Assembly (NCBI GenBank): GCA_963699715.1
Contig: CAVOUX010000004.1
Coordinates: 174,346 to 238,345, forward strand
Reading direction: 5' to 3'
DNA: 64,000 bases
DNA from: an uncultured bacterium
Lineage (GTDB): Bacteria > Babelota > Babeliae > Babelales > Babelaceae
Shown: positions 63,527 through 64,000 of the stretch, one piece after another
How positions within the stretch are numbered: the stretch's first letter is position 1
Layout of the letters: each line of letters starts with the position of its first letter
Notes under the pieces: model-generated
The model's input: the letters and a program-made list of their open reading frames with translations, nothing else
Database searches by the model: none
Told to the model about the DNA's origin: nothing
Program-made: the position numbers and the translations under genes

Positions 63527-64000
63527 ATGACAAATAAAATGGTTTTTCTTATATGTTTTATGTTTATCGGATGTGTCTTACTCATCCTTTGCAATTTTGA
63601 TAAACGCACGCAGGCAGGATTCAATCGCAAAAAATTGATAAGTACTTCCGAAGGCAGACGTCCGACAGTATTAGTTGCATGCGGTTCATTTTCTCCAATA
63701 ACAAATGCACATTTACGCATGTTAGAAAATGCACGTGATCACCTGCAGCTAACAAGACCTGACCTGACGATTGTTGGTGGTTTTATATCCCCTGTAGGGG
63801 ATGCCTATGAAAAAAAAGGCTTGATTGCCGCCCACCATCGTGTTGCTATGGCACATCTTGCCCTCAATGACTCTTCGTGGGTGCACGTTGATTCATGGGA
63901 ATCACAGCAACCTACTTTTCAACGAACGCTCATTATTTTAAAAAGGATACAACAACAGCTCATAAAGCATTACAAACGAAATGATGTCCGAGTTCTCCTC
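63527..64000 (+). CDS. Eukaryotic-type NMN/NaMN adenylyltransferase (NMNAT), 3' end outside the window, with N-terminal hydrophobic extension
   Basis: [25 protein letters not shown]...[45 protein letters not shown] closely parallels human NMNAT1 ([24 protein letters not shown]...[45 protein letters not shown]). Confidence 0.8.
   Translation, partial: [158 protein letters not shown]

Follow-up and report, generated by a model that had tools for sequence, protein, structure and literature searches.

The window analysed here, a 64,000-nt stretch of contig CAVOUX010000004.1 from an uncultured bacterium of the Babelaceae, closes with two genes on the forward strand: nadK, which encodes an NAD+ kinase (NadK), and an open reading frame (ORF) for a nicotinamide mononucleotide (NMN) adenylyltransferase of the kind found in eukaryotes (NMNAT). 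Both predicted proteins begin with a hydrophobic segment, here called the leader, that precedes the catalytic domain. The pair comprises the following features.

62480..62484 (+): Shine-Dalgarno-like GAGGA, 8-12 nt before the nadK ATG (GAGG at -12 and AGGA at -11 of 62492)
62492..63511 (+): nadK, NAD+ kinase, 339 amino acids (aa), Bdellovibrionota type, with a leader of ~45 aa before the catalytic domain (Pfam, NCBIfam)
62510..62551 (+): NadK leader; residues 7-20 form its hydrophobic core, IIPGLLLISACIFI, and show a lipobox-like L-I-S-A-C17
63516..63520 (+): Shine-Dalgarno-like AAGGA, 7-11 nt before the NMNAT ATG
63527..64000 (+): NMNAT ORF, codons 1-158 of 262, with 315 nt more past the window end
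63539..63598 (+): NMNAT leader; residues 5-24, all 20 uncharged, form its hydrophobic core, and a basic stretch comes after it
63635..63637 (+): TTG, codon 37 of NMNAT, the sole in-frame start that would remove the leader; the nearest AGGA lies 19 nt upstream, a poor spacing

Translation of 63527-64000 (+) yields an open 158-codon frame that contains the peptides quoted in the initial annotation of this region. The complete protein (P0001, 262 aa) was found both in a protein collection and on L001, an independent Logan assembly where the gene occupies positions 2347-3135. Because L001 is identical to the window over the whole overlap (2820/2820 bases), the junction between nadK and NMNAT is not an accident of assembly, and the adjacency that the initial annotation had described is a real one, with the two genes on the same strand and 15 nt between the nadK stop and the NMNAT start. 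The NMNAT gene has a Shine-Dalgarno sequence and no introns; its GC content (39.4%), its GC content at third codon positions (GC3, 36.1%) and its codon usage all lie inside the range of the window genes. We rejected an assembly chimera, because the two assemblies are identical at every overlapping base, bacterial genes flank the locus on the same strand, and the composition matches.

NadK matches the Pfam families NAD_kinase (PF01513, 8e-23) and NAD_kinase_C (PF20143, 3e-35), and the motifs GGDG (VLGGDGTLLS) and TPTGSTAYSLSAGGP are present in its translation. Its score of 251 bits compares with an equivalog cut-off of 316 for individual NCBIfam models, as expected for a divergent lineage, and its best named relatives come from metagenome-assembled genomes (MAGs) of Bdellovibrionota/Oligoflexia, at 55-63% identity. 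No second nadK was seen within the window. A terminator scan found no terminator-like site between nadK and NMNAT; a promoter and terminator scan around the pair was uninformative, with fewer sites than in shuffled sequences, and an Rfam scan of 59000-64000 found neither an NAD+ riboswitch nor any other RNA family. The two genes are most likely co-transcribed. Directly upstream of nadK lies a 383-aa ORF (61254-62405, +) with no Pfam or NCBIfam match.

The initial annotation had held that the adenylyltransferase is of the eukaryotic type and does not align in the same way with the bacterial enzyme NadD, and this proved correct by sequence, by profile and by fold. When the 158 aa in the window were compared with PDB using phmmer, the eukaryotic enzymes gave E-values around 1e-31 (mouse NMNAT3 9e-32, human NMNAT3 7e-31, human NMNAT1 1e-30) and the best bacterial NadD gave 3e-3. 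A HMMER search with the full-length protein against 1.84 billion cluster representatives returned 3192 matches (top 2e-64), the best 150 of which were all NMNAT-type; identity to E. coli NadD, our outgroup sequence, confirmed against PDB entry 1K4K, was 23.5%. The protein belongs to the nucleotidyltransferase superfamily PF01467 (Pfam), and at full length it passed the generic NCBIfam model TIGR00482 (144 bits, cut-off 112), whereas it failed all of the bacterial NadD-specific NCBIfam models (at most 60 bits against cut-offs of 150-315). Because it passes TIGR00482, routine annotation would see nothing odd in this gene and would name its product "nicotinate (nicotinamide) nucleotide adenylyltransferase".

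The AlphaFold model of the NMNAT has a mean pLDDT of 87.7 with values below 50 over residues 1-29, which puts the leader outside the NMNAT fold. Aligned with Foldseek, the model matches human NMNAT3 (1nus) with a TM-score of 0.96, an rmsd of 1.3 Å and 45% identity, as against a TM-score of ~0.84, an rmsd of ~3 Å and 20-25% identity for NadDs. The top 18 matches in PDB were human, mouse, Arabidopsis and Chaetomium NMNATs (target-normalised TM-score 0.86-0.97), with human NMNAT3 followed by human NMNAT1 and then by the Arabidopsis and Chaetomium enzymes; NadDs came after these, at ~0.84 or lower. In an alignment of 11 sequences the GxFxPx(T/H)xxH motif is present as G53-S-F-S-P-I-T-N-A-H62, with G53, P57, T59 and H62 invariant, and the ISSTxxR ATP-binding motif as N-I-S-S-T-L-V-R233, with S228 and R233 invariant. 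The region of the second motif (ISSTLVR) lies beyond the window end and was read from L001 and P0001. The other family-invariant catalytic columns are also intact. The enzyme is a eukaryote-type adenylyltransferase for NMN or nicotinic acid mononucleotide (NaMN), of the NMNAT1-3/Nma family, and is not a NadD; the gene is intact and its product probably active.

A further claim, that the protein aligns almost residue for residue with animal NMNAT1, held for its eukaryotic likeness but not for its animal specificity. Full-length identity is 42-48% to plant, amoebal (Acanthamoeba, Naegleria), fungal and animal NMNATs alike, and the best eukaryotic identity over the N-terminal stretch alone is 50-57%. 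A specific animal NMNAT1 donor was rejected on the strength of the full-length values.

We typed the leaders by a home-made analysis of hydrophobicity and charge only. NadK begins MNLLRKIIPGLLLISACIFIEKN; its leader is made of MNLLRK and 14 uncharged residues (IIPGLLLISACIFI) and then EKN, and the kinase profile, represented by the NCBIfam NAD kinase models, matches only from about residue 40-47 onward. The NMNAT leader is made of MTNK and 20 uncharged residues with a Kyte-Doolittle mean of 2.78, which is transmembrane (TM)-like, an N-terminal flank of +1 and a C-terminal flank of +4, and the NMNAT profile match begins after it, at residue 50. In both proteins a basic n-region and then an uncharged h-region stand at the extreme N-terminus, which is the Sec-type pattern. 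Such leaders are as unusual for these enzymes as had been supposed, being found in 3 of the 120 closest NadK homologues (P0092, P0094 and P0205) and in 7 of 331 NMNAT homologues. The NadK encoded on contig L008 also carries one, and leaders were seen on at least four NadK and three NMNAT sequences from different organisms. Among metagenome proteins of the NMNAT family, P0347 has a hydrophobic N-terminus (MRILSLIIAVISIFAG) directly before the core, and P0249 has a TM segment and then a basic stretch.

We found no clear internal start with a ribosome-binding site that would do away with either leader. A start-codon scan detected no ATG, GTG or TTG in codons 2-70 of nadK, or in those of its 68%-identical orthologue P0094, and the NadK leader therefore cannot be skipped with canonical starts; in NMNAT the TTG at codon 37, with its AGGA at -19, is the only candidate. 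The NadK leaders of the window and of P0094 can be aligned in the same frame from their first residue, with a single gap of 4 codons and at low identity, and have diverged fast across a protein divergence of 32% with their hydrophobicity kept. Among the NMNATs, the leader of P0375 (on L008) has a TTG start behind AGGAGG, and the TM leader of P0291 (on L013, 57% identical) has an ATG start behind AGGAGG. As read from these frames and start sites, the leaders are translated parts of both ORFs. The lipobox [LVI][ASTVI][GAS]C is not conserved among the NadK leaders (L-I-S-A-C17 in the window, T-G-I-C in P0094, none at the matching position in P0205 or L008), and a lipoprotein reading of NadK as a conserved feature was rejected because the lipobox differs or is absent in these three relatives.

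A word-index search with the NMNAT gave 91 matches, all of them eukaryotic except for the self-match and four unnamed metagenome proteins. Exhaustive and profile searches uncovered a handful of relatives encoded by prokaryotes, 40-57% identical to the window protein and distributed over at least five bacterial or prokaryote-like contig sets.

P0213: 51% identity; OY970209.1, a 1.52-Mb MAG chromosome; neighbours pheT, lspA, comF, a PPIase gene and atpB/E
P0374: 52% identity; four Logan contigs; synteny as for P0213
P0375: 44% identity; L008; ribosomal protein S1, NDK genes and nadK nearby
P0224: ~40% identity; L009; context related to that of L008
P0291: 57% identity; L013, a 726-bp contig that looks truncated and gives no gene context

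Larger surveys enlarged this list little: a motif-pattern scan of GTDB matched 1 of 185,579 species genomes (the locus on OY970209), a scan of the GTDB species genomes with the 158-aa query had no match, and a scan of JGI metagenomes gave only matches of at most 43% identity and no added member of the bacterial clade. IMG/VR viral contigs contained no copy of the NMNAT, and a viral vector thus gets no support.

The bacterial proteins share a signature, a 1-residue insertion between a conserved W and G together with a "DQ" dipeptide. Across 313 sequences it occurs in all five full-length bacterial members (the window protein, P0213, P0374, P0375 and P0224) and in 0 of the 308 others. In a 183-taxon neighbor-joining (NJ) tree the bacterial NMNATs form an exclusive clade, and with E. 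coli NadD as the root NJ places this clade 15 levels deep in the eukaryotic radiation, at a bootstrap of only 17-30%; as judged from the sequences, the insertion and "DQ" are stronger evidence for the clade than the NJ bootstrap. In NJ the bacterial clade has as its sister a group of short metagenomic NMNATs (P0361, P0257, P0347 and P0442); the gene for one of them, P0442, lies at 426-1079 of L094 in a compact gene context that has no annotation.

The family is spread over animals, fungi, plants, algae, Amoebozoa, Heterolobosea and others, a taxonomic distribution that strongly favours a eukaryotic origin. We read these data as an old transfer from a eukaryote to a bacterium, and probably a single one, since the composition is ameliorated and the bacterial copies, at 40-57% identity, have a common signature; both the direction and the age of the transfer are inferred. 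The proposal of host-to-bacterium transfer made in the initial annotation is thus sustained in that a eukaryotic-type gene is present in a host-adapted bacterium, but a fresh capture by a symbiont from its host is not what the ameliorated GC, GC3 and codon usage and the divergent bacterial copies describe. Recent capture from an animal host was likewise rejected, on the match in composition to resident genes and a best eukaryotic full-length identity of only 42-48%.

In two of the related contigs the NMNAT is accompanied by genes for nucleoside diphosphate kinase (NDK). L008, which is from a different organism (GC 45%), encodes an NMNAT and a NadK that are 44% and 41% identical to those of the window; the two genes are adjacent, with abutting stop and start codons, and each product has a hydrophobic segment at its start. 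An NDK gene lies on either side of the pair; one encodes a normal 133-aa form and the other a 184-aa paralogue with a textbook signal peptide. The layout in L009 is NDK, NMNAT, signal-peptide NDK, with an ordinary form of 134 aa and a paralogue of 181 aa, and the signal-peptide paralogues of both contigs carry a low-complexity linker.

L008, 7293-7694 and 9871-10425: NDK genes flanking NMNAT
L009, 1223-1627 and 3866-4411: NDK genes flanking NMNAT

From the layouts of L008 and L009, Sec-type N-termini on ATP-using nucleotide and NAD enzymes recur in this bacterial group.

The rest of the window is that of a host-adapted bacterium, in agreement with the intracellular organism that the initial annotation had envisaged. 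Bacterial markers include dnaA, lolCE, pepA, pgk, rpiB and a tRNA-Arg, and alongside these are eukaryote-like proteins, namely a Fic protein and no fewer than seven proteins with ankyrin repeats, one of which also has a RING finger, as well as insertion sequences.

44151-46316 (-): ankyrin and RING-finger (E3-ligase-like) protein, 721 aa, with a hydrophobic N-terminus
20539-21852, 46420-47553, 49881-50753, 50791-51276, 51305-52279 and 57609-59357: other ankyrin proteins
22032-23059 (-) and 60105-61132 (+): IS630-type transposase copies (ORFs of 348 aa, domains DDE_3 and HTH) sharing at least 1028 identical bases

The perfect identity of the two IS630-type copies over at least 1028 bases points to recent transposition; one of them lies just upstream of the block formed by the 383-aa ORF, nadK and NMNAT. 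An IS256 transposase is also encoded in the window. Several housekeeping genes (murD, ftsW, Band_7 and mutS; 7533-8396, 8909-9757, 31625-32377, and 53381-54865 with 54932-55489) look truncated or split: the murD-like ORF has 287 aa, the ftsW-like ORF (282 aa) spans positions 4-254 of a 356-position profile, the Band_7 match begins at profile position 36, and mutS is split into MutS_III and MutS_V pieces. These fragments suggest a host-restricted genome in which genes are still decaying.

Signal-like leaders are present on many window proteins, including ankyrin proteins, a His_Phos_1 histidine-phosphatase protein and a fusion of thioredoxin reductase and thioredoxin, and, downstream on L001, on a PAF-acetylhydrolase-like and a DUF2608 protein. 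The NADPH-dependent fusion protein (531 aa, 18938-20533, +) matches TrxB only from residue ~77 and has an N-terminal extension with a transmembrane-like segment at ~residues 36-54. The N-terminus of the His_Phos_1 protein (350-1051, +) is signal-peptide-like, and a His_Phos_1 gene whose product has a signal-like N-terminus is found directly upstream of the leader-bearing nadK of L010 (7253-7942). Past the window end L001 encodes a PAF-acetylhydrolase-II-like hydrolase (3275-4417) and the DUF2608 protein (4537-5442), both with transmembrane-like N-termini, and then a small AAA_18-like P-loop protein (5617-6201). A 1945-aa ORF (24945-30782, +) has a signal-peptide-like start. Cumulative GC skew falls monotonically across the window with no inflection near dnaA (37360-38745, -); the origin of replication may lie away from dnaA, or this genome may have only a weak skew.

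The leaders, to judge from their composition, almost certainly interact with the membrane, and from this we infer either tethering or secretion of the two enzymes. We think it reasonably probable that the anciently acquired eukaryotic NMNAT and NadK constitute a membrane-anchored or exported module that converts NMN to NAD+ and NAD+ to NADP+. An ancestor of a small host-associated bacterial group would have acquired the NMNAT long ago from a eukaryote, and the gene would have been placed downstream of the organism's own, vertically inherited nadK. NMNAT would catalyse the first step, from NMN (or NaMN) and ATP to NAD+ (or nicotinic acid adenine dinucleotide), and NadK the second, from NAD+ and ATP to NADP+, and both enzymes would have gained Sec/YidC-type hydrophobic N-termini that tie them to the cell envelope as anchors or export signals. 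Eukaryotic NMNATs use NMN well, whereas bacterial NadD prefers NaMN and its product then needs NadE; owing to this difference, a host-dependent cell that has the eukaryotic enzyme could make NAD+ in one step from scavenged NMN. By the positive-inside rule, which is a heuristic, the TM-like leader of the window NMNAT reads as N-out/C-in (C-flank +4 vs N-flank +1), consistent with a cytoplasmic enzyme tethered to the inner membrane. The NadK leaders of the window, L010 and L008 and the NMNAT leader of L008 are shorter and signal-peptide-like, have no consistent charge bias and are possibly cleavable. If nadK is single-copy, tethering is to be favoured over export, because export would leave the cytoplasm without NADP synthesis.

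Several observations weigh against this proposal. The TM-like NMNAT leader of P0291 has an N-flank of +4 and a predicted orientation opposite to that of the window protein, and half of the bacterial-clade NMNATs (P0213, P0374 and P0224, 3 of 6) are without a clear leader, which is thus not a property of the clade as a whole. Leader-bearing NadKs do not group in the NJ bootstrap analysis, where P0092 and P0094 pair at 100% and P0205 and the L008 protein at 75% but all four come together in under 2%. In L002 and L010 the leader-bearing nadK does not adjoin an NMNAT gene, and in the window the case for co-transcription comes from gene spacing only. Finally, the single bacterial NMNAT clade has a bootstrap of only 17-30%, from NJ only.

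Export is nonetheless a real option, given the NDK paralogue with its signal peptide and the eukaryote-like proteins that bear signals, even if we regard it as unlikely that NMNAT, NadK and the NDK paralogue are all exported by Sec and work in the periplasm or the host on host ATP and NMN. A similarly small chance can be given to the more specific idea that NMNAT and NadK are effectors, exported by Sec and then carried by a type II secretion system (T2SS) or by vesicles to the cytosol or a vacuole of the host. That such effectors would draw on host ATP to reshape the host NAD+/NADP+ pools, for instance by offsetting depletion by NADases or by lowering NMN, is doubtful to the same degree. Cleavable-looking leaders fit secretion, as in the window NadK (14-residue h-region, L-I-S-A-C), the L008 NMNAT (NSHA, with cleavage before the S that follows) and the NadKs of L010 and L008, and signal-like leaders are found on proteins that would have to act on eukaryotic targets (ankyrin, ankyrin-RING, PAF-acetylhydrolase-like hydrolase, DUF2608). 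In L008 and L009 a leaderless NDK is kept beside the signal-peptide NDK, which is the pattern of an exported extra copy, and a T2SS ATPase, pilins and a prepilin peptidase are encoded on related contigs. Yet nadK is a vertically inherited orthologue of the Bdellovibrionota type with no second copy in the window, and exporting a sole NAD kinase would stop NADP synthesis; the TM length and strongly basic C-flank of the window NMNAT leader speak for a catalytic domain in the cytoplasm; and the orthologue in the 1.52-Mb MAG is leaderless and lies among housekeeping genes. Exact-phrase searches of open-access text found no literature precedent for a secreted, periplasmic or exported NAD kinase or ATP-dependent NMNAT.

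It is improbable that the leaders are artefacts of annotation, with true starts downstream, hydrophobic segments that are untranslated or non-functional, and two cytosolic enzymes. The in-frame TTG at 63635 would give the NMNAT a normal-looking N-terminus, internal ATGs exist at codon 35 of the L008 NMNAT and at codon 32 of the L008 NadK, and three bacterial NMNAT orthologues have no leader; but nadK offers no canonical start in codons 2-70 in either the window or P0094, the internal candidates have no Shine-Dalgarno sequence or have it at -19, and the starts that include the leader are preceded by GAGGA, AAGGA or AGGAGG at proper spacing. The NadK leader has moreover stayed open, in frame and hydrophobic over 32% protein divergence, and leaders recur in at least four NadK and three NMNAT proteins. 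Very improbable, in our estimation, is that no eukaryote-to-bacterium transfer took place, either because the family was ancestrally bacterial and passed to eukaryotes or because the contig is chimeric or contaminated. The deep divergence of the bacterial NMNATs (40-57% identity) and the low bootstrap for their nesting in the eukaryotic radiation would agree with an ancestrally bacterial family; set against this are the breadth of the family in eukaryotes, the single match by motif pattern among 185,579 prokaryotic species genomes, the lack of any match among viral contigs, and the 15 levels of nesting in the NadD-rooted NJ tree. A chimera conflicts with the base-identical assemblies, the same-strand bacterial flanks and the matching composition given above.

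If a membrane-anchored or exported module is indeed encoded here, it would represent a clean interdomain transfer of central metabolism, and not of a signalling domain, that standard annotation hides by way of TIGR00482. NAD(P) synthesis may then sit at or beyond the envelope, which would bear on the ways in which obligate symbionts and parasites draw on the nucleotide pools of their hosts, and possibly on manipulation of host NAD+. Were the enzymes exported as a set, NAD(P) would be built outside the bacterial cytoplasm, by what would be the first module to synthesise it there, or host NAD+ homeostasis would be manipulated, for example to counter NADase-based immunity. The genes concerned are short and clonable. 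Keyword and phrase searches, made in open-access text only, found nothing relevant on bacterial eukaryote-type NMNATs and no account of their pairing with nadK or of the recurrent leaders.

We compared the locus with known systems. The NMNAT is like the eukaryotic enzymes (human NMNAT1/2/3, yeast Nma1/2 and Arabidopsis), with 45-46% identity to human NMNAT1/3 over ~217 positions, the same fold, GxFxPxTxxH and ISSTxxR, and it is like NMNAT3 in having, by alignment length, no long loop such as that which carries the nuclear localisation signal of NMNAT1. Unlike them, it is encoded by a bacterial gene with a Shine-Dalgarno sequence in an operon-like pair with nadK, and has a 20-residue TM-like N-terminus as well as the insertion and "DQ". 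With bacterial NadD it shares the PF01467 superfamily, the type of reaction and the passing of TIGR00482, but it is ~20-25% identical to NadDs, matches them in PDB with E-values of ~3e-3 and falls far under every NadD-specific NCBIfam cut-off. NadM and NadR are other prokaryotic NMNATs.

Interdomain transfer is established for Legionella, Coxiella, chlamydiae and Dependentiae, and as with the eukaryote-like proteins of these bacteria, a eukaryotic-type gene is found here in a host-adapted genome rich in ankyrin and RING proteins; unlike those cases, it encodes an enzyme of core metabolism whose partner is a housekeeping kinase, and not a signalling or trafficking domain, and its N-terminal signal is of the Sec type. 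Compartment-targeted NAD enzymes include the Golgi-anchored NMNAT2 and the mitochondrial NMNAT3 and NADK2, and in bacteria PnuC-NadR carries out metabolic trapping. The window resembles these systems, as generally understood, in the idea that a targeting element, N-terminal or lipid, or coupling to a membrane importer sets the site of NAD synthesis, but differs in that NMNAT and NadK each have a hydrophobic N-terminus of the bacterial style and no transporter gene adjoins them in the window. The signal-peptide NDK beside the NMNAT in L008 and L009 recalls the secreted NDKs of pathogens and the periplasmic NAD processing of Haemophilus (NadN, e(P4)); known periplasmic NAD enzymes are degradative and ATP-independent. 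The enzyme family is known, as are eukaryote-like genes in symbionts; what appears to be new is a bacterial clade of eukaryote-type NMNATs, its pairing with nadK, and the recurrent hydrophobic N-termini on both enzymes and, in relatives, on NDK.

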